DNA of 54,416 bases, taken from contig JAPLYL010000008.1 in NCBI GenBank assembly GCA_026395595.1, forward strand, positions 1 to 54,416. Reading direction: 5' to 3'. The notes beneath the pieces are model-generated. The model worked only from the letters and a program-made list of their open reading frames with translations. It had not been told where the DNA came from and did not search any database. Below, piece by piece: positions 3,697 through 51,920 of the stretch (positions are counted from its first letter, which is position 1; the number at the start of each line of letters is the position of its first letter). Both the position numbers and the translations under genes were made by a program. This DNA is from Candidatus Parcubacteria bacterium (lineage in GTDB: Bacteria; Patescibacteriota; Minisyncoccia; Phycocordibacterales; CAIJYI01).

Positions 3697-3968
3697 ACTT
3701 TCAGATATTTTTTCATTACGTCAAAAAGCTCGGCATTGTCATTTTCTTCCGCCTCAGCGCAAAGTACCGCTGCATCTTTTACTTCACGCAAAAACGCCAC
3801 GAGTTTTGCCTGCGCTTTTATTTTTTCATATTCTTCTTTTGAAACCTCTTTGTCGCCGTCCATTTGTTCCAATTTTTCTTCTTCTTTATCTAGTTCTTGC
3901 AAGACGCGTGCAAAAAATGCTTCCGCCGAATTTCCCTCCGCTCCTTTTTCAAATACTGGTGTTTCCAT
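3693..3968 (-). CDS. Small acidic hypothetical protein (91 aa from METPVFEKG)
   Basis: ATGA overlap with the GH15 start. TATACT box 7 nt upstream of ATG 3968, with TTGTAC 18 nt further up. The longer track ORF (to 4055) would run through this promoter. Confidence 0.5.
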   Translation of the reverse strand: METPVFEKGAEGNSAEAFFARVLQELDKEEEKLEQMDGDKEVSKEEYEKIKAQAKLVAFLREVKDAAVLCAEAEENDNAELFDVMKKYLKV

Positions 3969-3975
3969 AAGAAAC

Positions 3976-4148: not shown

Positions 4149-5003
4149 ATGTTAGAAGCACTCTTAATGGAACCGATGTTCTATGCGGGTATCGGAGGCT
4201 TTGCGGCCCTTATTGCGATTTTTATCTGGCGTTATCAGTACCCGGATGAATATAAACGCGCAAAAAAGAAAGTGGTCAACTTCCTCTGCACAGCACACCA
4301 TGTGTTCTACTTCCTCGCGTCAATGATATCTTTGTCAGCGCTCGGATGCGTTGCCATCTATTTCTACAGCGAAAAGACTGTAGATGCCATTCGTGCGGGG
4401 GCGCCTGATGTGTATGCTTTTATTGCGGGATATATCCTCTCGGTACAGGTTGCTTTCCTTATCTTCATATCTCTGTTTTTCTTATGGAAAACCATGACCC
4501 ATTACCACAATAGTTTGGATAACGGCGTCATAGACGATCCGGATGTGGAACGCCGTTTTACTCGGACAGATATCGTATTGGATCAGATGGAAAGAAACCG
4601 CAAAAAAGATATGGCTCAAATGCAAAAAGCCATTGAAGCCATCACTCAAATGCAACAAGCATTCTACTCAAACGGAAACCGATTTGAAAAAGACCCCACT
4701 CCTCCTGAAGGTGTTGACGAACGGCGTACTATCGTAAGAAAAGACCCGTCTGTTCCCATAACCAAAGAAGAAATTATTGAGGCGGTTCTTCCGACGCTAG
4801 TGGAAGAAAAAACGACGGAAATAATTCTTCCCGACCAAACGGTAGTTGTTTCTGAAGTTTTGGGACAAACAGAAGAAACGCTTCCCGTGATTGTTCAAGA
4901 AGAACCCATTAAAGAACAAGACAAGCCAAAAAAATTAAGTTGGCTCCACAGTTCCGATTGGGATGAACTCATTTGGGGGAAAAAGGCGGTTAACAAAAAA
5001 TAG
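4149..5003 (+). CDS. Membrane protein, hypothetical (N-terminal TM helices, acidic C-terminal tail)
   Basis: Strong SD (AAAGGAGGTG) 6 nt before the ATG. Hydrophobic N-terminal 120 aa. Terminator hairpin directly downstream. Confidence 0.7.
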   Translation: MLEALLMEPMFYAGIGGFAALIAIFIWRYQYPDEYKRAKKKVVNFLCTAHHVFYFLASMISLSALGCVAIYFYSEKTVDAIRAGAPDVYAFIAGYILSVQVAFLIFISLFFLWKTMTHYHNSLDNGVIDDPDVERRFTRTDIVLDQMERNRKKDMAQMQKAIEAITQMQQAFYSNGNRFEKDPTPPEGVDERRTIVRKDPSVPITKEEIIEAVLPTLVEEKTTEIILPDQTVVVSEVLGQTEETLPVIVQEEPIKEQDKPKKLSWLHSSDWDELIWGKKAVNKK

Positions 5004-6752: not shown

Positions 6753-8093
6753 CTACTCAACGAAAGTAATCGCCTTCCCTGTCTTCCCCGCTCTTCCGGT
6801 TCTTCCGACTCGGTGAGTGTAATCTTCGTAGGTCGCAGGCAAATCGTAGTTGATGACATGGCTGACATCGTTGATATCCAAACCGCGGGAAGCGACGTCG
6901 GTCGCGACCATAATCTGCACGCGGTTGCCTTTGAAAAGTTCAAGCGCGCTTTTTCGCTGTCCTTGCGTTTTATTTCCGTGAATGGAAACGGATTTGAATC
7001 CGCGTTTAGTTAATTCGTTGGAAAGCTTTTCAACTCCCCATTTCGTCTGTCCGAAGATGAGCACTTTCTCAAATTCTTTTTTGGAAAGCATGTCGTGAAG
7101 CACTTCTATTTTTTTTGCCCGATCAATCACTCGGACGATATCCTGATCAACGGAAGCGGCCGTATCGCCGACTCGAACAGAAATCCTGATCGGTTCCTTC
7201 AGGAATCCTCCCACTAATTTTTCAATATCGGGAGAGAAGGTCGCGGAGAAGAAAAGAGAATGACGTTCGTGGGGCATTTCTTTCAAGATGGCCTTGATAT
7301 CGGTAATGAAACCCATATCAAGCATGCGGTCGGCTTCGTCCAAAACAACCGTTGAGTATTCAGACATGTGAAGACACTTTCTTTCTTGCAGGTCTTTCAA
7401 ACGTCCGGGAGTACCAATAACGAAGTTGTGGCGATTACGCAAATTACGCATTTGCTCGCGAATGTTGGTTCCGCCGATACAGGAAACGCTCGCAATTCCC
7501 ATTCCTCTCACGAATCCGCGAAGCTCCATTTCTATCTGAAGAGCGAGCTCGCGAGTCGGAACGATAATAATCGCTTTTTTATTTCGCGCCTGTAACATTT
7601 TTTCCACGAGAGGAAGAAGAAAGGCGGCAGTTTTTCCGGTTCCGGTATTCGCAATACCGATAACGTCTTTCCCTGCGAGGACGTGAGGAATAGCCTGATC
7701 CTGAATAGGGGTCGGGGTGACATATCCGTGGTCAACGACATTCTTCGTTAATTCCGGAGAAAATCCGAATTGGACAAAAGAAAACTGCGGAACGTACGGT
7801 CGTGGTTTTTCAACCTCGCGCGCTTTATTGATAAAGCGAGAAACGTCAATTTTGGCGCCACGAAAACGTCCGTTCCCTCCGGCTTTTCCGACACCTCCGC
7901 TTCTACCTCGAGCGCTTCGGTTACCGCCAAAAGACGGTCGTCCTCCGGCGTTTTTATTTCCTCCAAAAGAGGGTCTTCCCCCTGATTTGCGAGCGGATGA
8001 GCTGAAAGAACTTTTCCCTGAGGAAGTTCTGCTCACGGCTCTTTCCGGGCGATCTCTGCGTGAGTGATCGCGATTTGGTCTGACTGGGTTCAT
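6753..8093 (-). CDS. DEAD-box ATP-dependent RNA helicase with N-terminal Arg/Gly/Ser-rich extension
   Basis: Q motif (GYVTPTPIQ), motif I ANTGTGKTAAF, DEAD, SAT, HRVGRTGRAG. The first ~95 aa are RGG/SFGG-rich. Confidence 0.95.
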   Translation of the reverse strand: MNPVRPNRDHSRRDRPERAVSRTSSGKSSFSSSARKSGGRPSFGGNKNAGGRPSFGGNRSARGRSGGVGKAGGNGRFRGAKIDVSRFINKAREVEKPRPYVPQFSFVQFGFSPELTKNVVDHGYVTPTPIQDQAIPHVLAGKDVIGIANTGTGKTAAFLLPLVEKMLQARNKKAIIIVPTRELALQIEMELRGFVRGMGIASVSCIGGTNIREQMRNLRNRHNFVIGTPGRLKDLQERKCLHMSEYSTVVLDEADRMLDMGFITDIKAILKEMPHERHSLFFSATFSPDIEKLVGGFLKEPIRISVRVGDTAASVDQDIVRVIDRAKKIEVLHDMLSKKEFEKVLIFGQTKWGVEKLSNELTKRGFKSVSIHGNKTQGQRKSALELFKGNRVQIMVATDVASRGLDINDVSHVINYDLPATYEDYTHRVGRTGRAGKTGKAITFVE

Positions 8094-35535: not shown

Positions 35536-35952
35536 ATGGAAACTATAGAAACTTTACTTCGCAAAAATGGTTCAAAAGCAACGCCGGGGCGAGTAGCAAT
35601 ACTTTCAGTGCTTCAAAAAAAATGCATCCCATTAAGTATCAACGAGATCTCGGCTTCCCTACCAGTCAAACTCAACCAAACGACTATTTATCGAACACTT
35701 GAATCATTAACTGATTCTGAGATCATACGAAGAGTCGAGCTGGGGCACGCGCATGCTCATTATGAAATGGTCGAGAAGCAAAATCACCATCACCATATCA
35801 TATGCAAAGAATGCGGAAAAATCGAGGATGTGCGCATTTGCGGAACGGAAGAGATGGAATCTTCTGTTTTAAAAAAATCAAAACTATTTCATAACATTAA
35901 AAGCCACGCGCTTGAATTTTTCGGAGTGTGTAACGGATGTGTTAAAAATTAA
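35536..35952 (+). CDS. Fur-family metalloregulator (Zur-like by context)
   Basis: wHTH (TPGRVAILSVL..INEI..NQTTIYRTLESL), HAHAHYE, HHHHIICKECGKIEDV...C..C. Directly upstream of the metal ABC transporter. Confidence 0.85.
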   Translation: METIETLLRKNGSKATPGRVAILSVLQKKCIPLSINEISASLPVKLNQTTIYRTLESLTDSEIIRRVELGHAHAHYEMVEKQNHHHHIICKECGKIEDVRICGTEEMESSVLKKSKLFHNIKSHALEFFGVCNGCVKN

Positions 35953-35956
35953 AAAA

Positions 35957-36859
35957 ATGAAAACGAAACAAACTCTATTCTTTATTATTGGAATAATGGC
36001 GTTTTTCTTTTTATTGGTTATAATAAAAACACCAGAAAGAAAGATAAATGATGAAAAAAAACTGAAAGTTACGGCAAGCTTTTACCCCCTCGCTTTTTTG
36101 GCGGAAGAAATAGGCGGCAACAAAGTTCAAGTACTCAACCTTACCCCCGCAGGAGCTGAACCTCATGAATACGAACCAACTTCCCGCGATATTGCGGAAA
36201 TGGAGAACAGTTCTGTCCTTATTATGAACGGCCTCGGTCTTGAACCATGGTATGAGAACATGAAAAATAACCTCAGTACGGAAAAAACCTTTATCGTCAC
36301 GGCAGGAGAAAGCATGAATGACGCGAGATCAAAAGATCCCCACGTTTGGCTTTCTCCGGCGCTTATGAATAAAATGGCGGAAAAAATAGAAAAAGCTTTC
36401 GCAAAAAACGATCAAAAAAACGAAATCTATTATCGAACCAATTTGCAAATACTTACGAAAAAATTATTGATCCTTGATGGAGAATATCGGAAAAACTTAT
36501 CAAACTGCGCACAAAGAACCATCATCACCTCGCATTCCGCTTTCGGATACATGGCAAAAAATTATGGGCTTACCCAAGTGTCTATTGCCGGACTTTCTCC
36601 TGACGAGGAACCGTCACCCAAAGCAATGGGAGATGTCGCAGCTTTTGTGAAAGCAAATAATGTAAAGTATATCTTTTTTGAAAGTCTAACTAGTCCGAAA
36701 CTCTCTCAAACAATAGCAAACGAAACGGGCGCAAAAACTCTGGTATTGAATCCATTGGAAGGCCTTACCAAACAAGAACTCTCTCAAGGTAAAAACTACT
36801 TGTCTGTCATGCGTGAAAATTTAGCAAACTTGCAAATAGCATTATCATGCCACAAATAG
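35957..36859 (+). CDS. znuA: Metal (Zn/Mn) ABC transporter substrate-binding protein, ZnuA/TroA-like
   Basis: Signal/TM N-terminus. AEPHEYEPT, DPHVWLSP and the cluster-9 SBP pattern. Confidence 0.8.
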   Translation: MKTKQTLFFIIGIMAFFFLLVIIKTPERKINDEKKLKVTASFYPLAFLAEEIGGNKVQVLNLTPAGAEPHEYEPTSRDIAEMENSSVLIMNGLGLEPWYENMKNNLSTEKTFIVTAGESMNDARSKDPHVWLSPALMNKMAEKIEKAFAKNDQKNEIYYRTNLQILTKKLLILDGEYRKNLSNCAQRTIITSHSAFGYMAKNYGLTQVSIAGLSPDEEPSPKAMGDVAAFVKANNVKYIFFESLTSPKLSQTIANETGAKTLVLNPLEGLTKQELSQGKNYLSVMRENLANLQIALSCHK

Positions 36860-37614
36860 ATCATACAAAAAAAATAGTAGAAATCTCCGATGTTTCTTTT
36901 TCTTACGGAAAAGAAGAAGTACTCAAAGATATTTCTCTTGATATACACCAGGGAGATTATCTTGGTTTAGTTGGACCGAACGGAGCGGGAAAAACCACTT
37001 TGCTCAAAATAATGTTAGGGCTTCTTTCTCCGACAAAAGGGGAAATAAAGCTTTTCGGAACAGACCTGAAAAAATTCAAAAAGTGGTCTGACATCGGGTA
37101 TGTTCCACAAAAAGCGACAAGCTTTGACGTAAACTTTCCCGCAACAGTAAAAGAAGTGGTTCTTATGGGACGATACGGAAAAAAAGGGCTCTTCCGCCAC
37201 ACCGACGGACGAGATGAAATAATAGTCAAAAAAGCGCTGGAAGAAGTCGGCATGCAAGAATATGAAAATCGTCTTATTGGAGATCTTTCCGGGGGGCAGC
37301 AACAAAGAGTTTTTATCGCGAGGGCGATAGCGGGAGAGCCAAAAATTATTTTCCTTGATGAACCGACATCCGGAATTGACGCAAAAACACAAGATGAATT
37401 TTATACCCTCATAAAAAAACTTAACACAGAACTTGATCTGACTCTCATTCTGATTTCCCACGATATTGAGAAAATAACAAAAGAAGCCATGCATATCGCC
37501 TGCGTTGATAAAACACTCGTTTATCACGAAACGCCAGAAAGATTCCTTGAGAGCGTTCATGCCAAAGAGTTCGTCGGAGAAAACGCAAAATTTACCACTC
37601 ATCATCATTCCTAA
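36847..37614 (+). CDS. znuC: Metal ABC transporter ATP-binding protein
   Basis: Walker A GPNGAGKTT, signature LSGGQQQR, Walker B IIFLDEPT. Confidence 0.9.
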   Translation: MPQIDHTKKIVEISDVSFSYGKEEVLKDISLDIHQGDYLGLVGPNGAGKTTLLKIMLGLLSPTKGEIKLFGTDLKKFKKWSDIGYVPQKATSFDVNFPATVKEVVLMGRYGKKGLFRHTDGRDEIIVKKALEEVGMQEYENRLIGDLSGGQQQRVFIARAIAGEPKIIFLDEPTSGIDAKTQDEFYTLIKKLNTELDLTLILISHDIEKITKEAMHIACVDKTLVYHETPERFLESVHAKEFVGENAKFTTHHHS

Positions 37615-37618
37615 AAAT

Positions 37619-38404
37619 ATGGATATTTTTCAATACGGTTTTATGGTGCGAGGGTTGGAGGCAGGAATAATCGTCGCCATTATCGCTCCGCTTATCGGGA
37701 TATTCCTCGTTCTTCGGAGATACTCTCTCATTGCGGACACGCTCGCTCATGTTTCCTTGGCGGGTATTGCCCTCGGTCTGCTTCTCGGTCTTAATCCCGT
37801 TTATACGGCCATCGGAGTAACCGTTATCTCTTCCGTCGGAATAGAGCGATTACGAACATCGCAAAAAATATACGGGGAATCAGCTCTCGCTCTTTTTCTT
37901 TCCGGAAGTCTCGCCTTGGCCATGATTCTTTTAAGCCTTGCAAAGGGTTTTAATACCAATCTTTTAAATTATCTTTTCGGGAGTATAGTAACCGTAACAG
38001 CCGGAGATGTCCGTGTTATGGCGATTCTCGCCGCATTCGTTTCCCTCGCTCTTTTTCTTTTTTATAAAGAACTCGTCTATATTTCTTTTGATGAAGAATC
38101 AGCAAAAGCGGTCGGTATTCCCGTTCGGTTCATCAACGTGCTCCTTATTGTTCTTGCGGCGTTGGTCGTTTCTCTTGCTATCCCCATCGTCGGCATTTTA
38201 CTCATTTCCGCGCTTATGATTATCCCCGTCATTACCGCATTGCAGTTCAAAAAAGGGTTTGTAAAAACCATTATCTACGCCGAAGTTATTTCCATCCTTT
38301 CTGTCATCTTCGGAATTATCTTTTCTTTTTATTTTAATCTCTCTACAGGGGGAACGATAGTCCTTGCCATGCTCGCTGTTTTTGGAATCGTGTTATTGAT
38401 ATGA
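37619..38404 (+). CDS. znuB: Metal ABC transporter permease
   Basis: Start at MDIFQYGFM. ABC-3 family pattern (ADTLAHVSLAGIALG). 8-9 TM segments. Confidence 0.9.
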   Translation: MDIFQYGFMVRGLEAGIIVAIIAPLIGIFLVLRRYSLIADTLAHVSLAGIALGLLLGLNPVYTAIGVTVISSVGIERLRTSQKIYGESALALFLSGSLALAMILLSLAKGFNTNLLNYLFGSIVTVTAGDVRVMAILAAFVSLALFLFYKELVYISFDEESAKAVGIPVRFINVLLIVLAALVVSLAIPIVGILLISALMIIPVITALQFKKGFVKTIIYAEVISILSVIFGIIFSFYFNLSTGGTIVLAMLAVFGIVLLI

Positions 38405-39132
38405 ACGGACTGCTCCGATGTTCAAGGTATGCATTCGGACCTAACCGTTTGCACTATTGCGGACCCGATAAAAACCGGGAAATTTTTTCACATATCAGCG
38501 AAGGAGAAGGAGGTGAAGGACTGACGGAGCTGCTTACTCAGTTTGAAACCATGTACCCGTATCTTTGCCATATTGCGGAGGCGAATATGATACAAGACCC
38601 CCTTTCCGACAAAGTGGTAGAAGCGTACTGGATCGGCAATTCTCTTCTGGAACGAGTATCAAAACAAAAACTCTATGAGCACCTCCGCGACAAACTTAGA
38701 TTAAAAGATAAACTGGGAGCGAAGTCTTTTGAACTGGTCACGGAAAAAATCGGACAAGGAGCGCTTCCTCATCATTCTTTTCATGTTCTGGATATTTGGA
38801 AAAGGACAGGAAAAGAGGAACGAGAACATTCCATTGAAAACATCAGCGAGTGTTTGGTAAGTGTCGGAAAAATTATGTCAGTATCGGGACCGTTTATTAT
38901 AGTGGAAACCGAACCGATTTTATATGAAAAAGGGAAACTGACGATTGGCGCCCCCATACAAAAAAATATCTTAAGACAGCTTGAATCGGATTATGACATT
39001 GAACAATTGAAATCGGGAGATTTAGTCTCCATACACTGGAGCGTTATCTGCGAAAAAATTACAAAACGGCAAGCGGAGAGTTTGAGGAAATACACAAAAC
39101 ACCACATTAAGTTAGCAAATGAAACTTTATAA
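38401..39132 (+). CDS. Conserved hypothetical protein, translationally coupled to znuB
   Basis: ATGA overlap with the znuB stop. The N-terminal CSRYAFGPNRLHYCGPD motif and several conserved-looking Cys/His. Family not assignable by eye (possibly a DUF). Confidence 0.65.
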   Translation: MNGLLRCSRYAFGPNRLHYCGPDKNREIFSHISEGEGGEGLTELLTQFETMYPYLCHIAEANMIQDPLSDKVVEAYWIGNSLLERVSKQKLYEHLRDKLRLKDKLGAKSFELVTEKIGQGALPHHSFHVLDIWKRTGKEEREHSIENISECLVSVGKIMSVSGPFIIVETEPILYEKGKLTIGAPIQKNILRQLESDYDIEQLKSGDLVSIHWSVICEKITKRQAESLRKYTKHHIKLANETL

Positions 39133-39180: not shown

Positions 39181-39471
39181 ATGAAAACCGGTTTTGTTTA
39201 CATCCTCGCAAGCAAAAGAAATGGCACGCTCTATATCGGCGTCACTTCCGATCTTATAAAACGAATCGATGAACACAAAAGAAATGCCACCGACGGTTTT
39301 ACAAAAAAATACAATGTTCACACTTTAGTGTACTATGAAATGGCGGATGATATACGAGGAGCCATTGAAAGAGAAAAACAATTGAAAAAATGGAACCGGT
39401 CGTGGAAATTAAAATTAATTGAAAAAGAAAATCCACAATGGAGAGATCTTTATACTGATCTCTTTGAATAA
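39181..39471 (+). mobile_element. GIY-YIG nuclease family protein (stand-alone, 96 aa)
   Basis: GFVYILASKRNGTLYIGVTSDL (GIY..YIG), R..EHK, and the E..LKKW pattern. Flanked by ATTCCC-N8-GGGAAT palindromes. Confidence 0.9.
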
Positions 39472-39551: not shown

Positions 39552-39968
39552 ATGAAAAAAACTATTTACGTTTTCGGCAATCCTGACCTTGAAATTGATT
39601 CCCTTCCGCTCCGCATACTTCCAAAACTTCAGGAGCGTTTTCCCGATATTGTTTTTACCGTTCTTGACCCGAACGAAGAGTGGAAGATTCCCGAAGAGAT
39701 GGTAATGATAGATACGGTTATTGGAATAAAAGATCTGACCATTTTTAACGACCTAAAACATTTCACCGAAGCCCCGCGAATATCCGTCCACGACTTTGAT
39801 GCTTTCTTCAATCTCATCTATCTTGAAAAACTCGGCAAACTGAAGAAAATAAAAATCTTCGGAATCCCGCCGGAAATGTCCAAAATTTCCGCGACAAAAG
39901 AATTGACAAAAGCAATAGAAAAGTGGTATAATGCAAATAGAAATTCACACAAAGGAGAGACAAAATGA
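39552..39968 (+). CDS. NiFe hydrogenase maturation endopeptidase (HycI/HoxW-like)
   Basis: Four family motifs in order: VFGNPDLEIDSLP, MIDTV, SVHDF, IFGIPP. Located 2 kb from the hydrogenase large subunit, which has a C-terminal extension. Confidence 0.65.
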   Translation: MKKTIYVFGNPDLEIDSLPLRILPKLQERFPDIVFTVLDPNEEWKIPEEMVMIDTVIGIKDLTIFNDLKHFTEAPRISVHDFDAFFNLIYLEKLGKLKKIKIFGIPPEMSKISATKELTKAIEKWYNANRNSHKGETK

Positions 39969-40551: not shown

Positions 40552-41973
40552 ATGATTACCAGAGTCTACAATAAACAAGTCCTTATTTCCATTGCGGGCG
40601 TTCCGATAAAAGCCCTGGAAAAGCATGTGGCAAAATATCTTGCTGATATTTTACAGCCAAATGAACATATTCTCCGCCATTCCATCAACAACATCAAAGA
40701 CGGCGTGGCCACCGTTGAGATGGCTATTGCGGAAGCGAATCGCCCTCTTTCAGCAGAAAAGTATCCAGGATATGAAAATCCGAAGGGAAATAAAAAGGTT
40801 GTCGTTCACATCGTCCCGACCGGGGTTCAGGCTTCAATCGGCGGGTTCATTGCAGACGCAAGTCCGGCAACAAACTTGCTGGCATCGGTTGCCGACTACT
40901 GTATTACCAACCCCAACGCGGTAAATGCGGCGGTGACGACGTACATGTCGCCCAACGTCGTTTACACGGAAGGACACACTCTTGATAATTTTTTCCAAAA
41001 CCGCGTGGCTCTTATTCCGTTCCATAAAAAACTGAACCGAATCGGGCTTATCCTTGATCACGGAGAGGATAGCGAAGAGATCAAAAAAATCCATCGATTC
41101 TGTTTTCAAACGGCGGAAATGTGCCGGCTGGCTGGCGGAATCAATATCTCGGACTATGAGATTACCGATGAGCATGTTGGAAGCCGATCATTTCAAACCG
41201 ATTCAGGAGCCATTACCGGAGAAATAGGAAGGCCATTGACGCTTATAAGAGCCATGGAACGATTGCTTAAAAATCGTGCGCACGAAATAGACGCGTTCGT
41301 CGTCGGCACGCAGATAGAAATTCCTCAAGGAGCGCTTGACCTCTATCATGCGGGAAAAGCGCCCGATCCGCACGGAGGATTGGAAGCGGTCATTTCTCAC
41401 ATGCTCTCTTGGAGATCGGGAAAAATGGTCGCCCATGGCCCTCTGCTCTATGCAAAAGAAATTGACGATCTTCTTGATAGAAAAAATTACGATGCCCGTG
41501 CTACCGGCGAAATTATCGGAAGCATCGGATATCTCGGATGCGTTATGCAAGGGCTTTCCCGCGCGCCGAAGATTCACTTCTTGAACGTCAACGCCAAAGA
41601 AAGACTTTCACCCGATTGGCTTCGTCTCGCAGATGTCGCCGTAATCGTTGCTCCGTGGAATTCTCTCGGGGGTCTGCCCATGCTCGTCGCAGCAGAAAGA
41701 GGCATACCGATTATAGCCGTCAAAGACAATCACACCCTTCTGAATGTCTCCAAAGAGACATTGGGTTTCGGAGACTCCGTCATAGAAGTGGATACCTATC
41801 TGGAAGCGGCCGCTCTCGCAAAACGAATTGTTGAAGGAGGTACGCCATATCTCTCAGAAAGAGAACATTCTAAACTTCTTTCCGAAGGATTCAAGATAGC
41901 CGAAGATACCGGCATGACAATAGAGTCGCTGGTTCGTCCGGTCGTTCCTTTTGAAATCTTCGCAAAAAGTTAA
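40552..41973 (+). CDS. Conserved hypothetical protein (DUF3326-like core with ~80-aa N-terminal extension)
   Basis: GGAGG SD. TTGACT-17-TATTGT promoter. The VHIVPTGVQASIGGFIADASPATNLLA motif recalls the PTGIGAxIGGxAGDA signature I associate with DUF3326 (from memory, unverified). Confidence 0.65.
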   Translation: MITRVYNKQVLISIAGVPIKALEKHVAKYLADILQPNEHILRHSINNIKDGVATVEMAIAEANRPLSAEKYPGYENPKGNKKVVVHIVPTGVQASIGGFIADASPATNLLASVADYCITNPNAVNAAVTTYMSPNVVYTEGHTLDNFFQNRVALIPFHKKLNRIGLILDHGEDSEEIKKIHRFCFQTAEMCRLAGGINISDYEITDEHVGSRSFQTDSGAITGEIGRPLTLIRAMERLLKNRAHEIDAFVVGTQIEIPQGALDLYHAGKAPDPHGGLEAVISHMLSWRSGKMVAHGPLLYAKEIDDLLDRKNYDARATGEIIGSIGYLGCVMQGLSRAPKIHFLNVNAKERLSPDWLRLADVAVIVAPWNSLGGLPMLVAAERGIPIIAVKDNHTLLNVSKETLGFGDSVIEVDTYLEAAALAKRIVEGGTPYLSEREHSKLLSEGFKIAEDTGMTIESLVRPVVPFEIFAKS

Positions 41974-41985
41974 AAAACTTTAACT

Positions 41986-42024
41986 AAAAATCCCGTACAG
42001 GTAATGCTGTACGGGATATTTTTT
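41986..42024. terminator. Bidirectional terminator between the DUF3326-like gene and the hydrogenase large subunit
   Basis: ATCCCGTACAG-GTAATG-CTGTACGGGAT with A- and T-runs. Confidence 0.85.
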
Positions 42025-43315
42025 AGATCCAATTTACTTTTAAAAAGTGAGCGCCGCAAGACATACAGGGATCGTAGGCTCGTATCAGTTTTTCTATTTC
42101 CATCGGAATTTTATCTTCCGGCATTCCTTCCACAAGGAGTTTTTCTACCAGCCTGCCGATATCTTCTTCTATATTGACCTGATTCTGTCCGGTTGGGACA
42201 ATAACTTCCCCTTCTTTGATAATACCGTCCGCTCCGAGAACAACTTTATGATAGAGCGTTCCGCGGGGCGCTTCTACTACACCAATCCCAACAGCATCGC
42301 GATTCGGTTTTTTAATAAGTGGCTCGGGAACAAAAGTATTATTTTTAAGGAGATCAATGGACTCATCCACCGAGTGCAGAATTTCTATCGCCTGAGCAAG
42401 GTTGTTGTGAAAGATATCAGTAGAAGGAAAAAGAGCGAGTGTGTCTTTCAGCGATTCTTTTGTTTTTGGGTGAAGGTTTTCTTTGGCGATGTTGATACGA
42501 GCGAGCGCTCCCACGAGGTAACTTTCTCCTTTGTATTTATACGCACTGGCTTGCGATAACGGCATGACCGTGTGTTCAAGAAGATTGCGATATTCTTTCT
42601 CGTCAAACATTTCGCCTCGGCTTGTCCGTATTTTTCCATTGATATATCCAAAACCTTCATCGGCGATGAGCGCCATATAATGCGTTTTTCGGTCAAAATG
42701 ATTAGGAGCATCTTGAAAAACTTTTATGAGACGGAGGACGGCTTCCCTGACCGATTCGAGTTTTTTCACCGCTTCGTCTACACCCTCTTTGGAAGGAAAA
42801 TGCAGGAAACCGCCGATGACCGGATACATGCCGTGAACAGAACGACCGGCAACAAGCGTCGCCAGATAATTTCCCGCCGCCTTTATATCAAACCCATCAT
42901 GAAGCATTTGATGCTGGGTTTCGTCTGTTTCATCAAAATCCAAGAAGGCATCTTTGCCGAACAGATCGGGCATAGAAAAAAGATAGAGATGAAGCGCGTG
43001 GTCGCGTATGATAAGTCCATGCATGGTGAGAGCGCGGAGAATCTCTGTTTGTTTCGTCGGCTGGATATCCAAAGCATTTTCGCACGCTTCAATCGCTGCC
43101 ATAATATGAGCGTTGGAACAGGTTCCACAGATACGCGCGAGGTGCGCAGGAATTGACATGACGGGTTTTCCTTTCATCGCCTCGGTGAAAAAGCGTTTGT
43201 ATTCGGTAATACCAAAATGAACATCCGTAACTTTCCCGTCTTCCGCGTGGATAGAAACCGCGGCATCGCCTTCTATTTTGGTGATATGTTCCATTGAGAG
43301 GTCTACTTTATGCAT
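42023..43315 (-). CDS. NiFe hydrogenase large subunit, group-3-type
   Basis: N-terminal RICGTCSNAH (RxCGxCxxxH) and C-terminal DPCMSCGAH (DPCxxCxxH), followed by the 7-aa extension FLKVNWI. 430 aa. Confidence 0.95.
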   Translation of the reverse strand: MHKVDLSMEHITKIEGDAAVSIHAEDGKVTDVHFGITEYKRFFTEAMKGKPVMSIPAHLARICGTCSNAHIMAAIEACENALDIQPTKQTEILRALTMHGLIIRDHALHLYLFSMPDLFGKDAFLDFDETDETQHQMLHDGFDIKAAGNYLATLVAGRSVHGMYPVIGGFLHFPSKEGVDEAVKKLESVREAVLRLIKVFQDAPNHFDRKTHYMALIADEGFGYINGKIRTSRGEMFDEKEYRNLLEHTVMPLSQASAYKYKGESYLVGALARINIAKENLHPKTKESLKDTLALFPSTDIFHNNLAQAIEILHSVDESIDLLKNNTFVPEPLIKKPNRDAVGIGVVEAPRGTLYHKVVLGADGIIKEGEVIVPTGQNQVNIEEDIGRLVEKLLVEGMPEDKIPMEIEKLIRAYDPCMSCGAHFLKVNWI

Positions 43316-43333
43316 AATTTCTGGTGTTATCTG

Positions 43334-45361
43334 TTAATTTTTTATATTTTTAATCGCATCCTTTGCTGCTTTTATATTTTCGGCATCTTCTTCTTCATCC
43401 GCTCTCGCCAAAAAATCTTGATACACCTGAACTGCTTCAATATTGCGTTCTTCTTTTTTTAGCAGCTCTGCCAAAGAAAAATACGGATTTGAAAAACGGT
43501 CATTCAAAGAAATCGCTTCAAGAAATTCCTGTTCTGCTTTCTCGTCATAATCGCCTAACATCACGAGAGTTTTTCCAAGACCATAATGAGCCCGCTCATT
43601 ATGAGGGTTCAATGATATTTCTTTCTCAAAAGTTTCCTTCGCTTCCGAAAAATTACCGAGATTGTACAAAGATTGCCCGATGCCATTGTAGGCCAAATGA
43701 TATTCTGGATCCAAAGCAAGCGCCTTTTTGTATTCCGCTATCGCTTCTTCGTTTCGCCCCTGTTTCATGAGAGAGTATCCGAAATTGTTATAAAGATTAG
43801 GATGATCAGGAGAAAGAGTAAGCGCTTCACGAGAGGCATCAACCGCTTCCTCATACTTCCCCATCTTTATAAGAGCATCAGCCGTATTTCCGAGGAGTTG
43901 TATTTGCTGCCCTTCTTTCGGAGGAAAAAGCGTAATATATTTTCTTTCTCTCTCTACAAAAAACGGCATTTTTTCTTCATAGATATTTCCTTTCACTTCA
44001 AAGGTAAAACCTTGAACTGAAGGATTTTTTGAAAAAGCGACAATATCAGAAACGGTAATAGGGTTGCCGTTTTTCAATACCCCCGATAAAAAACTATCAT
44101 GGAGCTCTTCATTCAGATGAGGAGCCAACATGTCTTGCCAGACAACCCGGTCGTCGGAAGTGACAAAAAAGAGAAAAGAATGTTCAGGAACCGATCCGAC
44201 CAAATAGTTAATACCAATTTCCGAAAGGAGGGCTCCTCCGATAATGGAAGCTCCGACACAATTAATGTATTTGGTAAGGATAATCTCCGCTGGATTATTT
44301 GAGTTTCCGCGATAACGAAAAGAGCTCACCGCTTGTTGTATTTTTGAAGATAATTCCGTTTCTTTTCTTCCTATAAAAAGAAGATCTCCGCTTTTGCGGA
44401 CTTCCTCCATTTCTTTTTTAAGCTCTGAAAGATGCAAAGATTCAACCAATTTTCTGTTCTGCTCAGAAAAAGAAGACGCGGCGCCTCCGCCAAAAAGGTT
44501 TTTTATAAACAATTCCACGGAACCAATTATTTCCTTTTTTGCCGGTTGTTCCAAGTTTTTCAAAAGATTTTCAACACCGCGTCTGAACATCGCTCCGTCC
44601 AATTCCCACTTCGGTTTTTCCACTTCATTTTGAATGGACTGGTCAATCTTTTGCAAAAATGCGGAGTGAACGGGGGTGGTACTTTCCCACGGTTTCGCTT
44701 TTTCCTTCGGTTCTGACAAACTGCGATTTTGAAGAGCAAATGCTTTTTGAGCAACGCGGAAAAACTGAGAGAGTGCTTCCCTTCTTTTTTCTTCCTTCTC
44801 TTTTTTGTCTTCAATTTTTTCCAAACGAGAAAGAACAATATCTTCACTCAGAATCCACTTATCAACTTCTGCCGTTTCTTCTTCTGTGAGCTCTTTTTTT
44901 ACAGGCATTTCTTCGGGAGAAAGAAGTTTTCCGTAGGAGTAAAATTCTTCCGCCATGGCTTCCGCAATTTCTTTTCCTTCTTTTAAGGAAGAGTTCCTTT
45001 CTGAAAGATAAGAAGCGGTATTCATAAACATTTTTCCGAGCGCTTCCATTTCCTCTTTCTTTTCTCTCGCTCGTTCGGGTTTTTCAATAAACGTATCGCG
45101 GTCGATTTCTTCCATAATGCCCGCCATTTCCCATAAATGGAGATCTTGAGGAAGAAAAAGTATCATCTTTCCATTCTCTTTTTTTTGAAAAAAACCGGTC
45201 TTTTTCTTTTCTTCCCATTCTTTTCTTTCAAGAAATTCTATTTCCGTACCGTCATTGATCTCCGCCCATTTTTTGAGAAAAGACTGCGAAGACAGAGTAC
45301 CGAAAGAAATTTTCTCTGTTTTTTCTTTTATACTGAATGTTTTTTGTTCGGAAGGATTCAT
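43334..45361 (-). CDS. Transglutaminase-like (Cys-His-Asp) / TPR-repeat protein with long E/K-rich N-terminal region
   Basis: INCVGASIIGGALL...PEHSFLFF...VVWQD is a papain/transglutaminase-like C-H-D arrangement. At least 4 TPRs follow (for example AIAEYKKALALDPEYHLAYNGIGQSL). Gaps of 11 nt and 18 nt to the flanking hydrogenase genes. Confidence 0.75.
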   Translation of the reverse strand: MNPSEQKTFSIKEKTEKISFGTLSSQSFLKKWAEINDGTEIEFLERKEWEEKKKTGFFQKKENGKMILFLPQDLHLWEMAGIMEEIDRDTFIEKPERAREKKEEMEALGKMFMNTASYLSERNSSLKEGKEIAEAMAEEFYSYGKLLSPEEMPVKKELTEEETAEVDKWILSEDIVLSRLEKIEDKKEKEEKRREALSQFFRVAQKAFALQNRSLSEPKEKAKPWESTTPVHSAFLQKIDQSIQNEVEKPKWELDGAMFRRGVENLLKNLEQPAKKEIIGSVELFIKNLFGGGAASSFSEQNRKLVESLHLSELKKEMEEVRKSGDLLFIGRKETELSSKIQQAVSSFRYRGNSNNPAEIILTKYINCVGASIIGGALLSEIGINYLVGSVPEHSFLFFVTSDDRVVWQDMLAPHLNEELHDSFLSGVLKNGNPITVSDIVAFSKNPSVQGFTFEVKGNIYEEKMPFFVERERKYITLFPPKEGQQIQLLGNTADALIKMGKYEEAVDASREALTLSPDHPNLYNNFGYSLMKQGRNEEAIAEYKKALALDPEYHLAYNGIGQSLYNLGNFSEAKETFEKEISLNPHNERAHYGLGKTLVMLGDYDEKAEQEFLEAISLNDRFSNPYFSLAELLKKEERNIEAVQVYQDFLARADEEEDAENIKAAKDAIKNIKN

Positions 45362-45372
45362 AGAATTTATGA

Positions 45373-45861
45373 TTAAATAGCCGGTCGCAATTCTTTTACT
45401 AATGCATCTATCGCTTTTAAGAAAGCATCGGGGTTCATAGGACAGCCGGGCAGTTCCACATCCACTTTTATGACATCGGAGAGTTTAAGCACTTTGGGAA
45501 GCGCGCCGAATCTAGTAACAAGAAAGTCTATCGCTTCTTTCTGTCCTTCAGTAAAAGAGTTTCTCTGTCCGGCAGGGAGTCCGACACAAGCGCACGACCC
45601 AACAGCAACGACCTTTTTTGCCTTGCTCCTAATCTCTTTCACTTTCTCCTCCTGTTCAGGAGAAGCAACTGCTCCTTCAATAAAAGCAACATCAAATTCA
45701 TCCATGAGATTATTTGATTTAAGAACTCTTGCATGACGAAAATCAAAAATCTTTTTCCATTCTTCCCAATGGTCATTCATGATTTCCGTCATAACAATAG
45801 TACTATCCTCACAACAAGAGAAAGAGAACCACCCCAGCTTAATTTTTTCTTGATTTTCCAT
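45373..45861 (-). CDS. NiFe hydrogenase small subunit, minimal (proximal-cluster only)
   Basis: The SFSCCEDS, AVGSCACVG and LPGCPMNP Cys motifs, and DVAFIEGAV. Only 162 aa, with no additional Cys clusters. Confidence 0.85.
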   Translation of the reverse strand: MENQEKIKLGWFSFSCCEDSTIVMTEIMNDHWEEWKKIFDFRHARVLKSNNLMDEFDVAFIEGAVASPEQEEKVKEIRSKAKKVVAVGSCACVGLPAGQRNSFTEGQKEAIDFLVTRFGALPKVLKLSDVIKVDVELPGCPMNPDAFLKAIDALVKELRPAI

Positions 45862-45890: not shown

Positions 45891-45920
45891 ATTATATCAA
45901 AAACTTGTCTTTTGGGACAA
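45891..45920 (-). promoter_or_regulatory. Promoter TTGTCC-18-TATAAT for the hydrogenase operon
   Basis: Lies 29 nt upstream of ATG 45861 and directly after terminator 45938-45968. Confidence 0.5.
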
Positions 45921-46688: not shown

Positions 46689-49016
46689 TTAGGAGAACCA
46701 CCTCTTAATAATCTTATCAAAAGCAATCTCAACGCTTCTTTGGTGCCCGCGAACAATCATAACGGAGGCATCAACATGTTTAGCAAGGAGCTCCGGAATT
46801 TTTCCGAGACGTATCTGATTCAAAATATGAGGAGAAGAAGCATTAATAATGACAAGTTTTCCTTCTTTTTGAAAATTCGCTTCTTTAACGATTGCGGAAA
46901 TAACGGATTTTACGGAAAGAATCTTCACCTCCTCAAAGTCTGTTTCTTTGAACGAGACCGCGGATAATAATTTTTTAGTGGTTTCAGTGCCGGGGCCTTT
47001 GTGATCAAGAGGGACGACGGAAATAAGTTTCATTTTTGGGTGAAAATGGGACTGTATTGCCGAAAGCACTTCTCCTGTCAGAGGAAGATATGGGTTATCG
47101 CAACGATATTCTTCTGCGAGGAGTACTGATTTTATCGGTTGCGGGTTTTTAACGAGCAAAAGATCTATTTTTGTTTCTTGAAGAATTCGGTCGATTTTCC
47201 CCCCGAAGACATACCCTTTTGTGGTTGTATACCCGTCCCATGCAACCAAAAGCATATCACAGTCCTCTATTTTTATAACTTCAATCAAGGTATCAACCGT
47301 ATCGCGTCCGACCATTGCCAGACTATGGAGGTTGATATCTTTCTCTTCAACTTTCTCACGGTTGAATTCCTGCACCCACTGTTTCAAATTTTCAAAAATA
47401 TGCTGGTCATGGATCATAGTTGATCCGTCAAGAAGGGTCAGCTGTTGAGGAATAACATGAACTTTTACCGCCAGAATTTCTCCACCGTATTTGCTGGCAA
47501 GAGCAAAAGCTATTTCAGAAAGATTTCGCAACTCCTCAATCGTCATTTTTGACGGAATCGGCATTAAAATCCGATGATTGACTTTAGGGATGACGCGCAT
47601 GGTTTGTTCATAAACGACATCTCTCTCAAAGCTCTCTCTCCCTTGGTTTTGAGCATAACTGTAATAATTAATTAATCCCACGAGAGACCAAAAGACAGTA
47701 ACGATCCAAGCCACCGGATTGACGTTAAGCATCGTAAACGCCAAAAGGATGTAAATAAGAGTCGCAAGGATTGGAGTGAATGGGAAGAAAGGCACCTTGT
47801 AATACCATTTAGTATGAGGATATTTAAAGTGTATGAGAATTCCCGCGATATTCAACTGCAAAAAAAGAAGAACAAAAAGAAGGGACGCAGCAGAAGCAAC
47901 ATCAAAGAGAGGGAGAAAGATAATCATAAACCCAACCAAAACCACAGAAACAATAACAGCAAAATGAGGGGTGAGATTTTTAGTATGGATCTGAGCGAAT
48001 CGCGACCAGATATTTTTGTCGCGAGCAAGAGCGAAAGCGACATGACTGGAAGAAAAGATGGTCGTATTCAAAGCGCCGAGATTTGCAAGAAGACCCCCAA
48101 ACAAAAGAGTCATCATTCCAAAAGGCATAAAAGTTCTGGCTGACTCAACAATCGCGCCTTCTTTAAAAGAACTGAGGACTTGCCACACCGATCCGGCTTG
48201 AGAAGAAGTAGCTCCGATAATAACAACGCTCACCATGGCATAAATAAGAGAAACAATCGCCCAAGAAGAGAATAGTCCTATCTTGATATCGTGCGAAGGA
48301 TTTTTGGTTTCCTCTCCCGCTTGCACTTGAATCTCTGACCCCTCAAAAGCGATATACAAAAAGCTGGTCGCCGCAAGAATACCCAGCCATCCTTTCGGCA
48401 AAAACGGCTGGAAATTCTCAAGAGGAATCGGCATTCCTACCATCTGTTTAATGCCAAAATACAGATAAAAACCAAGGATAACCAAAAGGATTGCGGTGAT
48501 ATAATTCCCCGCTTGTCCGGTCGTTTTCGCCCCGCGCCAATTTATATAACCAAAAAGAATAACCATGGCTAAAGCGCAAACTTTTTCTGTTGAAAGAAAA
48601 CCTGAACCGACAAAGGCGTCAGCTCCGAAAATTCTGAGCAAGGCGGCGGCGTAATAGCCAAAAGAAAGCGCATACACTCCGCAGGCAGCCGCATGAGCAA
48701 ACCACGAAAGCCAGCCGGCAAGAAACCCTTGAAAATTTCCCAGACCTTTCCGAACCCAAAGGTACCCGCCACCGGCTTCGGGAAAAGTAGTGCCAAGCGC
48801 AACGTACATTTGAAGATTAAGAAAGGCAACAGCCGAACCTAAGATCATGGCAAGAAAAAGACCGGGACCGACAAGGCCGATGGCGGGACCAAGGAGCGAA
48901 AATATCCCTCCCCCAATAAGAGACCCTATACCGATAAAGATAATGGAAAATGGGCCAAGTGTCCGAGCCATTTTAACTTCGTAGCCATGATCTTCTGCTT
49001 GTCGAATTGTTTTCAT
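46689..49016 (-). CDS. APC-family amino acid permease fused to two C-terminal universal stress protein (USP) domains
   Basis: About 12 TM segments in the N-terminal 460 aa with an APC-like pattern. The C-terminal 300 aa form two alpha/beta USP-like repeats (ILMPI..., LLVAWDG..., LVIINAS..VMIV). Confidence 0.85.
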   Translation of the reverse strand: MKTIRQAEDHGYEVKMARTLGPFSIIFIGIGSLIGGGIFSLLGPAIGLVGPGLFLAMILGSAVAFLNLQMYVALGTTFPEAGGGYLWVRKGLGNFQGFLAGWLSWFAHAAACGVYALSFGYYAAALLRIFGADAFVGSGFLSTEKVCALAMVILFGYINWRGAKTTGQAGNYITAILLVILGFYLYFGIKQMVGMPIPLENFQPFLPKGWLGILAATSFLYIAFEGSEIQVQAGEETKNPSHDIKIGLFSSWAIVSLIYAMVSVVIIGATSSQAGSVWQVLSSFKEGAIVESARTFMPFGMMTLLFGGLLANLGALNTTIFSSSHVAFALARDKNIWSRFAQIHTKNLTPHFAVIVSVVLVGFMIIFLPLFDVASAASLLFVLLFLQLNIAGILIHFKYPHTKWYYKVPFFPFTPILATLIYILLAFTMLNVNPVAWIVTVFWSLVGLINYYSYAQNQGRESFERDVVYEQTMRVIPKVNHRILMPIPSKMTIEELRNLSEIAFALASKYGGEILAVKVHVIPQQLTLLDGSTMIHDQHIFENLKQWVQEFNREKVEEKDINLHSLAMVGRDTVDTLIEVIKIEDCDMLLVAWDGYTTTKGYVFGGKIDRILQETKIDLLLVKNPQPIKSVLLAEEYRCDNPYLPLTGEVLSAIQSHFHPKMKLISVVPLDHKGPGTETTKKLLSAVSFKETDFEEVKILSVKSVISAIVKEANFQKEGKLVIINASSPHILNQIRLGKIPELLAKHVDASVMIVRGHQRSVEIAFDKIIKRWFS

Positions 49017-51362: not shown

Positions 51363-51653
51363 CTAGAGTATTTTTCTTACCTTAACATAATTTCCCTCTT
51401 TATTCGGAGCGTTTTGTATAAGTCCTTCCGTATACTTTCCTCCTTCGTGCGGTTCTACATCTTCACGAAAGACATTATGATTTTCTCCGACATCAGAAGT
51501 ATCAGAAGAAATCTTTTCTTTTGCGAGATCCTGCACCTCAGAAACATAGGCCAAAATACCCTCCAGTTTTTGGCGGATATTTTCCAATTCTTCTTCTTTG
51601 ACTTCTATACGGGATAATTCCGCAAGATTTTGGACATCTTTGTTGCTTATCAT
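51363..51653 (-). CDS. gatC: Glu/Asp-tRNA amidotransferase subunit C
   Basis: 96 aa from MISNKDVQNLAELSRIEVKEEE (typical GatC N-terminus). TATTAT box 6 nt upstream of the ATG. The track ORF extension was rejected. Confidence 0.9.
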   Translation of the reverse strand: MISNKDVQNLAELSRIEVKEEELENIRQKLEGILAYVSEVQDLAKEKISSDTSDVGENHNVFREDVEPHEGGKYTEGLIQNAPNKEGNYVKVRKIL

Positions 51654-51659
51654 CGTCCC

Positions 51660-51688
51660 ATAATACCTCATTTTTAAGGCTTGTGCAA
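51660..51688 (-). promoter_or_regulatory. Promoter, leaderless type (TTGCAC-17-TATTAT-6-ATG) for gatC
   Basis: ATG at 51653. No SD. Confidence 0.5.
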
Positions 51689-51920
51689 AAAACATAGATA
51701 TGTTATCGTTGTCTTTGAAAAAAAGAGGGGGTTTTATGTTTAAATGTATAGAAGAAGCATTCGGTAAAATTTTATGCGCGCTCGGACACCACGATCCGAA
51801 ATATCTCAACAAAAAAACCGGGCTATGCCTGTGTACTGCGCCCGTATGAATGCAAAAAAAGGTTGTGCTCATAAAGTAGAAGGGGTAAAAATTCCGCCAA
51901 GACCAAAAGGTTAAAAATAT

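Follow-up and report, generated by a model that had tools for sequence, protein, structure and literature searches.

On contig JAPLYL010000008.1 of a Candidatus Parcubacteria bacterium, the small- and large-subunit genes of a [NiFe] hydrogenase are separated by a gene encoding a 675-aa protein, which has tetratricopeptide repeats (TPRs) at its C terminus and a predicted papain/transglutaminase-like domain ahead of them. All positions given here are those of a 54,416-nt stretch of this contig (the window). The 675-aa gene is best explained as a lineage-specific passenger in the operon of a hyd2 hydrogenase, a type specific to bacteria of the candidate phyla radiation (CPR), and its product as a cytoplasmic enzyme that acts outside H2 metabolism; the probability of this reading is put at about 0.7. 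The split operon is real and had not been noted before, and the hydrogenase itself was already known.

A preliminary description of the same DNA proposed that the middle protein could serve the hydrogenase as a scaffold, maturation factor or regulator. Had this idea held, the missing partner of a two-subunit CPR hydrogenase would have been named, but the comparative data argue against it: in close relatives, the orthologous slot lacks the TPR gene. The new findings are modest. They comprise a slot for variable accessory genes within the hyd2 operon, an unannotated CPR family that combines a predicted papain/transglutaminase-like domain with TPRs, and a model-based structural annotation of a hyd2-linked HybD-like protease.

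A variable slot between the subunit genes

The three open reading frames (ORFs) are co-oriented in the order small subunit, 675-aa protein, large subunit, with spacers of 11 nt and then 18 nt, as the preliminary description had it. The genes and the signals around them are the following.

45373-45861, minus strand: small-subunit gene (162 aa; ORF list, PF01058)
43334-45361, minus strand: middle (TPR) gene (675 aa; ORF list)
42023-43315, minus strand: large-subunit gene (430 aa; ORF list, PF00374)
45891-45920, minus strand: TG-extended sigma-70-like promoter TTGTCC-18-TATAAT (10 of 12 consensus matches), 30 nt 5' of the small-subunit start codon
45942-45969, minus strand: terminator-like hairpin of the upstream gene (12-bp stem with 8 GC pairs, then a T run), the 5' boundary of the three-gene unit
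41990-42017, bidirectional: terminator-like hairpin that ends both the three-gene unit and the convergent DUF3326 gene

A terminator scan of the 11-nt and 18-nt gaps found none. Since the hairpins lie only outside the trio, the three genes look like a single transcription unit, in agreement with the likely co-transcription from the TATAAT promoter that had been proposed.

The slot between the subunit genes was compared across 54 related loci, examined by tblastn with the window proteins. A large subunit at least 86% identical to that of the window defines the close clade; in distant hyd2 loci the identity is 66-78%. Every distant locus that includes the small-subunit gene has the two subunit genes side by side. 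There are about 17 such distinct loci, none with cargo in the slot and all with a spacing of -5 to 207 nt, and adjacency of the two genes is the putative ancestral state. A distant contig of another make is the 4.3-kb L034 (large subunit 69% identical), where a class-III aminotransferase-like ORF stands directly upstream of the large-subunit gene (L034 33-1214 and 1227-2552) and no small-subunit gene is present on the contig; subunit adjacency is not universal. Within the close clade, the slot is occupied as follows, the TPR gene being cargo C.

Slot empty: L043 (8 nt), L048 (25 nt), L025 (178 nt)
TPR gene (C) alone: the window, L049, L013, L044, L055
Cargo B and C: L002/L016
An 89-aa internally deleted B remnant and C: L054
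Cargo A and B: L001
Cargo A alone: L003
Cargo D and B: L026, L027

The small-TPR-large order is therefore not kept among relatives: the slot is empty in three loci whose large subunit is 89-92% identical to that of the window (L043, L025, L048) and holds other genes in four more (L001, L003, L026, L027). Conserved co-occurrence of the TPR gene with the hydrogenase fails in these seven close loci and in the roughly 17 distant ones. The metal motifs and C-terminal extension of the large subunit are identical with or without cargo (18 loci), and the TPR gene appears, from these comparisons, to be dispensable for the hydrogenase.

The cargo genes always stand in the order [A or D]-B-C on the hydrogenase strand. 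The product of cargo A (L001 5897-7018; L003 6831-7952) is 373 aa long and has a conserved HExxH motif (residue 208); that of cargo D (L026 2045-3748; L027 4434-6119) is 561-567 aa long, and neither belongs to a Pfam family. Their first ~40 residues are common (57% identity) and their bodies are unrelated, so that the A/D pair would represent a polymorphic pattern in which a common leader carries a swapped body. Cargo B is a 284-aa Bro-N protein (PF02498, 3e-8; L001 7037-7891; L002 4968-5819). Along its full length (residues 9-280 of 284) it matches PDC-S13, a defence candidate in PADLOC (1.9e-118), and it also matches the phage protein family phrog_15286. It is found in relatives and not in the window, and PDC-S13 is itself only a candidate system, on which a literature search found nothing. 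In L054, the internally deleted B remnant (3700-3969) lies upstream of the TPR gene. Because cargo B matches PDC-S13 and a phage family, the slot appears to collect genes unrelated to hydrogen metabolism.

Seven slot states occur together in a single sample, the metagenome Ga0172379 (L024, L025, L026, L027, L028, L044, L048): A and B; empty with 178 nt; D and B (two loci); B and C; C alone; and empty with 25 nt. This indicates strain-level presence and absence of slot genes within one community, and the locus illustrates clearly how accessory genes can sit within a two-subunit operon that looks essential, in reduced genomes.

The rates at which these genes evolve bear on how the insertion arose. 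Between the window and L013, the synonymous divergence (dS) of the TPR gene equals that of its flanks, at 1.24, whereas its nonsynonymous divergence (dN) is 0.284 against ~0.04 in the hydrogenase genes (dN/dS 0.23 against 0.03; ~0.03 for the large subunit). Against the closer L049, dN/dS is 0.12 for the TPR gene and 0.02-0.03 for the hydrogenase genes. The 675-aa protein thus evolves ~7 times faster than its flanks, yet under purifying selection. Divergence is fastest in its TPR part, where identity to L013 is 52% against 64%. Equal dS, higher dN and a dN/dS of 0.23 together argue that the TPR gene is functional and vertically co-inherited with the hydrogenase genes and far less constrained than they are. 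A recent recombination that swapped in the TPR gene, as its 57-64% identity within flanks of 89-93% might suggest, is rejected, since the copies in the slot are monophyletic and the gene has the same dS as its flanks. It is simplest to assume that a family member was captured once into the ancestor's operon, probably as part of an A/D-B-C block, and that vertical descent, fast protein evolution and repeated loss followed.

The junctions of the slot carry AT-rich TTAAC-like spacers, a (ATTTAACC)n repeat in L001 and the palindromic 178-nt spacer of L025. The tandem ATTTAACC repeats of L001 lie at ~7940-7990, just 5' of the large-subunit start codon, and the L025 spacer (~4540-4717) is an AT-rich imperfect palindrome of ctaatttctaa-type repeats; both could be scars or recombination substrates. 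Other intergenic spots vary among the relatives as well, with small ORFs in L013 and L049 and a pilin-like N_methyl gene in L016.

The 675-aa protein and its family

Three regions can be distinguished in the 675-aa protein. The features listed below draw on a family alignment, an AlphaFold2 (AF2) model of residues 1-481 built on that alignment (predicted local distance difference test [pLDDT] score 86, predicted template-modelling [TM] score 0.82) and Pfam.

44462-45361, minus strand: N-terminal domain (~aa 1-300), mostly helical with a small sheet; motifs P71, W77 and E78 (DLxLWEM); alignment and AF2
43919-44410, minus strand: predicted papain/transglutaminase-like domain (aa 318-481); conserved triad, AF2 and Foldseek
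44258-44260, 44180-44182 and 44132-44134, minus strand: codons of the triad residues Cys368, His394 and Asp410
43382-43909, minus strand: about five TPRs (aa 485-660); TPR_11 8.9e-26, TPR_2 1.9e-25 and other TPR families

The C-terminal repeats are the least ambiguous part: Pfam thresholds are passed by TPR_11, TPR_2, TPR_8, TPR_1 and others over residues 485-660, and the five or so repeats exceed the minimum of four first proposed. The N-terminal region had also been described, as a long E/K-rich stretch; it is present, but it is a conserved, helical domain predicted to be well folded (pLDDT mostly >85) and not a low-complexity tail. In an alignment of 38 family members, the conserved N-terminal positions include P71, W77, E78, R179, E190 and F201. 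This domain has no family match in Pfam and no fold match by Foldseek.

The existence of a Cys-His-Asp papain/transglutaminase-like core, likewise claimed from the sequence, is borne out by the same alignment and by the geometry of the model. Cys368 and His394 are invariant in the 38 members, and Asp410 is found in at least 90%. In the AF2 model, Cys368 opens a helix (368-382), His394 opens a strand (394-400) and Asp410 follows a strand (406-409), with local pLDDT of 90-96; this placement is, as modelled, the canonical papain/transglutaminase arrangement. At the level of the fold, the protein shows the hallmark of the superfamily, a conserved Cys at a helix N terminus with a conserved His and Asp on the next two strands. 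The top Foldseek matches in the PDB are menin, CPR-C4 (7ob7) and PNGase, all of which are transglutaminase-like (probability 0.66-0.98, with weak E values of 0.15-1.3).

Sequence searches gave little. The non-TPR part has nothing significant in Pfam, NCBIfam, PADLOC or PHROG, a profile of the domain alone matched no PDB sequence at E up to 10, and a Foldseek search of viral structures with the protein model returned nothing meaningful. Pfam scans of 28 family domain sequences yielded a single marginal match, to the papain-fold toxin family PF15644 (3e-3). The SirB1-type architecture that had been suggested does not stand as a family assignment: PF13369 is not matched at E up to 1 by the N-terminal 481 aa or at E up to 10 by the 28 domain sequences, and TPR_9 (PF13371) scores 29.1 bits, below its cut-off of 35. 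The protein is most likely cytoplasmic. It contains no cofactor motifs and one cysteine in total, Cys368, and so cannot carry FeS clusters; the idea that it makes up for the FeS domain lacking in the truncated small subunit is rejected on this ground.

A search with the 481 non-TPR residues found 43 clusters, all of 560-820 aa and all with C-terminal TPRs, and the few source-named ones among them come from Paceibacteria-type bacteria. An exhaustive profile search extended the family to 403 representatives (50% identity, E up to 1e-3), and nearly all of those listed share the ~650-aa layout. Among the top 150 matches of the exhaustive representative search there are same-architecture relatives only and no bridge to a named family. 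The family appears to be restricted to Patescibacteria-type genomes. An unannotated family of ~400 clusters is thereby defined, whose members join a conserved N-terminal domain and TPRs to a predicted papain/transglutaminase-like domain in which the Cys-His-Asp triad is intact.

The in-slot TPR proteins (P0001-P0007; 57-100% identity) group as a single clade when the family is placed in a neighbour-joining tree, and 7/7 are encoded in the hydrogenase slot. The six sampled members outside this clade (~40% identity) are encoded in six unrelated settings, none of which has a hydrogenase gene. Their neighbours are, in turn, a C39-TPR peptidase gene; an integrase gene with a P-type ATPase gene; an Mrr-like nuclease gene; a MazE/PIN pair with a transposase fragment; a patatin gene; and RmuC.

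The hydrogenase, its maturation genes and other neighbours

The two subunits are of the group-3 type, as described before. The small subunit matches PF01058 (E=3e-21) and the large subunit PF00374 (E=4.5e-31); in NCBIfam, the large subunit is nearest to the alpha subunits of group-3b sulfhydrogenases, ShyA (2.9e-72) and HydA (8.5e-63), both under the equivalog cut-offs. By sequence, it has what a catalytically competent [NiFe] large subunit requires, namely an RxCGxCxxxH motif (L1, RICGTCSNAH, aa 61-70), a DPCxxCxxH motif (L2, DPCMSCGAH, aa 415-423) and a cleavable C-terminal extension, here the 7 aa FLKVNWI that follow DPCMSCGAH and would be removed by an endopeptidase. The small subunit differs from the canonical group 3b small (delta) subunit, which has ~250 aa and three FeS clusters. 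It has 162 aa and 5 Cys in a NuoB-like set (Cys16/17, 90/92 and 140), enough for one proximal [4Fe-4S] cluster, and its matches to HydD/ShyD span only the N-terminal 150 residues of those models. No gene for a beta (FeS) or gamma (FAD/NAD(P)) subunit is found in the operon, as the unit between the terminators consists of three genes only.

Two CPR-specific clades related to group 3b have been described (Jaffe et al., 2020, BMC Biol 18:69; PMC7304191). In one of them, hyd2, the small subunit is consistently truncated (mean 164 aa versus 250), there are no consistent beta or gamma subunits, and a family with similarity to HypC is found nearby; its function was called still uncertain by its authors (Jaffe et al., 2020). 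With a group-3b-related large subunit, a small subunit of about 164 aa, no adjacent beta or gamma genes and a CPR host, the window hydrogenase is assigned by its sequence features to this known enzyme, and all relatives drawn from genome and metagenome collections belong to Patescibacteria/Paceibacteria. The lack of FeS/flavin partner subunits nearby, which the preliminary description had remarked on correctly, is a published property of hyd2 (Jaffe et al., 2020).

The claim that no hyp genes lie within 10 kb has to be corrected, because a maturation endopeptidase 2 kb from the hydrogenase genes had been missed and a weakly HypC-like protein is encoded beyond it. The genes concerned are the following.

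39552-39968, plus strand: predicted HybD/HycI-type [NiFe] maturation endopeptidase, 138 aa (weak hidden Markov model [HMM] matches, synteny, AF2 and Foldseek)
38401-39132, plus strand: DUF6390 protein (PF19927, 2.4e-57), with a marginal HupF/HypC match at its C terminus (E 0.04)
37505-38404, plus strand: ABC-3 permease
36847-37614, plus strand: ABC ATPase
35912-36859, plus strand: ZnuA-like binding protein

The 138-aa ORF has weak HMM matches to hydrogenase maturation proteases (Pfam HycI, 16 bits versus a cut-off of 23), and its homologues are all labelled hypothetical, with no precomputed Pfam domain. A profile of the family run against PDB sequences gave no identification, which came from structure comparison alone. 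G9, N10, D16, D54 and H80 are invariant in the family; the AF2 model (pLDDT 86) matches T. kodakarensis HybD (5ija, E=4.8e-6, TM score 0.62) and also E. coli HybD and HycI (1cfz, 2e85) in Foldseek. The invariant residues, the confident model and the Foldseek match, that is, a HybD fold with conserved acidic/Asp/His metal ligands, identify the ORF as a probable divergent HybD/HycI endopeptidase. Of the loci that extend far enough to show these neighbours, most have both its gene and DUF6390 in the company of hyd2. Since the locus has a maturation protease of its own, the most obvious hydrogenase job for the papain-like domain is removed; a role of the 675-aa protein as the C-terminal protease of the large subunit is unlikely, given the HybD-fold protease conserved nearby and the dispensability of the TPR gene in relatives. 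DUF6390 is the last gene of an overlapping string (35912-39132, plus strand) that begins with the ZnuA-like protein and continues with the ABC ATPase and the ABC-3 permease, and this string may provide a metal-supply or maturation link to the hydrogenase. The divergent HybD annotation and the link of DUF6390 and the metal importer to hyd2 are useful for understanding hydrogenase maturation in CPR bacteria.

Besides the endopeptidase, DUF6390 and the metal ABC importer, the annotated neighbours of the trio are a permease, GatCA and DUF3326. Further features of the surroundings are these.

39181-39471, plus strand: GIY-YIG nuclease-domain ORF (96 aa), between the DUF6390 and endopeptidase genes
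39903-39932: perfect TTGACA-18-TATAAT site, 5' of the DUF3326 gene
40552-41973, plus strand: DUF3326 gene, between the endopeptidase and large-subunit genes in the close clade only
46689-49016, minus strand: amino-acid permease fused to a C-terminal Usp domain (775 aa), directly upstream of the hydrogenase unit and syntenic in all close relatives
51363-51872, minus strand: GatC ORF, 169 aa in the mechanical ORF list

Because the called GatC orthologues in L013 and L049 have only 96 aa, the long N-terminal extension in the window is probably an upstream alternative start and not real sequence.

Explanations of the insertion and comparison with known systems

The passenger model can be put as a mechanism. 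A Paceibacteria-type bacterium would have carried a two-gene hyd2 operon, and accessory genes, the 675-aa gene among them, would have been inserted between the subunits in the ancestor of one narrow sub-lineage. Since the 675-aa gene has no promoter of its own, it would most likely be transcribed from the hydrogenase promoter as a passenger, and the large-subunit gene would be expressed by read-through. The most likely division of labour is that a protein target is bound by the C-terminal TPRs and that the Cys368-His394-Asp410 centre cleaves or modifies it. The hydrogenase would be independent of the passenger and matured by its own HybD-type endopeptidase.

Several points weigh against this model. 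The genes of one tight operon are usually functionally linked. The association with the slot has outlasted saturated synonymous divergence in seven clusters (90% identity) and, together with the tight operon, makes a lineage-specific interplay of the TPR protein with the hydrogenase conceivable. Co-transcription is read from spacing and consensus scans only, and no repeats, att-like sequences, integrase or transposase were convincingly seen at the slot junctions. The fold assignment draws on weak Foldseek E values with no sequence-profile match, and the enzymatic activity of family members is a prediction from sequence and model.

A more specific version of the passenger model, and a distinctly less probable one, takes the slot for a small defence or conflict island, in which the TPRs sense a foreign protein, the papain-like domain is the effector and the hydrogenase promoter is used for expression. 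It accommodates the full-length match of cargo B to PDC-S13 and phrog_15286, the differing slot content of strains within a single metagenome, the leader-body pattern of cargo A and D, the raised dN/dS of the TPR gene with its fast-diverging TPR part, the position of other family members beside MazE/PIN and a transposase fragment, patatin, a Mrr-like nuclease or an integrase, and the match of one member to a papain-fold toxin. For the TPR protein itself, however, PADLOC and PHROG return only generic TPR similarity, its dN/dS is well under 1, and its fixed architecture across ~400 clusters fits a housekeeping role too; the other members show no consistent neighbourhood pattern, and PDC-S13 is itself no more than a candidate system. 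Viewed more broadly, it is tentative at best that the inter-subunit spacer is, in one Paceibacteria lineage, a long-lived hotspot of conflict- or defence-type genes under the hydrogenase promoter (a new family of TPR-guided papain-like proteases, a PDC-S13 Bro-N protein and the polymorphic A/D proteins) or, less likely, that hyd2 has gained in the TPR-protease a post-translational controller or adaptor. If the hotspot is real, the expression of immunity or conflict functions would be coupled to that of hydrogen metabolism.

Recruitment of the TPR-protease in this sub-lineage as a partner of the hydrogenase, be it as a scaffold or adaptor to an electron partner, a regulator or a subunit-processing protease, is improbable. 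The tight, co-oriented embedding of the gene with no terminator in the gaps, the kept position in 7/7 members of the in-slot clade and the purifying selection would all suit such a partner, and the frhADGB operon of methanogens offers a precedent for a protease gene between catalytic subunit genes. A partner could moreover be sought for hyd2, which has no known partner subunits (Jaffe et al., 2020). Yet at least six distinct close relatives, with intact hydrogenase genes and the same motifs, do not have the gene in the slot, nor does any distant hyd2 locus, and the same slot holds unrelated Bro-N/PDC-S13, HExxH and cargo D proteins. The protein evolves ~7 times faster than the subunits with no sign of co-evolutionary constraint, its single cysteine and want of cofactor motifs do not suit an electron-transfer role, a conserved HybD-type maturation protease is already present, and the wider family is encoded away from hydrogenases in 6/6 sampled cases. 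A further reading, in which the inserted gene has no cellular role and is non-functional or decaying, as selfish DNA or an incipient pseudogene would be, is all but excluded by the purifying selection: slot genes have demonstrably been lost over time (the empty slots and the B remnant of L054), but all seven in-slot clusters keep the frame of 675 codons unbroken, with a dN/dS of 0.11-0.23, catalytic-type residues that are invariant or nearly so and a confidently predicted fold.

With the passenger model preferred, the middle protein can be compared with several known systems. Like SirB1/YchA (PF13369 Transglut_core2 and PF13371 TPR_9), it has a Cys-His-Asp domain followed by TPRs and is probably cytoplasmic; unlike them, it has neither a PF13369 match nor an above-threshold TPR_9 match, it carries an extra conserved 300-aa N-terminal domain and is ~2 times as long, and its family is apparently restricted to Patescibacteria-type genomes. 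Menin (PDB 3re2, 4gpq), the best Foldseek match, resembles it in the combination of a transglutaminase-like thumb with a TPR palm. Menin is a eukaryotic scaffold whose transglutaminase-like domain is not known to be catalytic, whereas the triad is intact and conserved in the 675-aa protein, and the match is weak (E 0.15-1, TM score ~0.15 over the whole query).

CPR-C4 (PDB 7ob7), a transglutaminase-like cysteine protease of the vasohibin type, is specific to the CPR and an orphan in sequence, recognizable by structure only; it forms a homodimer of single-domain, 211-aa subunits and has a Zn site and a Cys-His-Leu(carbonyl) triad (PMC9108980). The 675-aa protein is a sequence orphan like CPR-C4, which is its second-best Foldseek match. 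It differs in its Cys-His-Asp triad, in showing no evidence of a Zn site and in its added N-terminal and TPR domains, and the match is again weak (E 0.32, root-mean-square deviation 13 A).

In the frhADGB operons of F420-reducing hydrogenases, the frhD protease gene lies between the two catalytic subunit genes, and FrhD is a HycI/HybD-type maturation endopeptidase. Here, by comparison, the HybD role falls to a separate gene (39552-39968), and the inserted gene encodes an unrelated fold and is dispensable in relatives.

The hydrogenase itself is to be compared with the CPR hyd2 enzymes (Jaffe et al., 2020), with which the window shares a large subunit closest to the group-3b sulfhydrogenase alpha subunit with all Ni-binding cysteines kept, a truncated small subunit of ~164 aa, the lack of adjacent beta and gamma genes, a HypC-like family nearby and relatives in Parcubacteria/Paceibacteria. 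The published account of hyd2 mentions no inserted genes, whereas 1-3 kb of variable cargo parts the subunit genes in this sub-lineage, and the HybD fold predicted for the neighbouring endopeptidase goes beyond that account.

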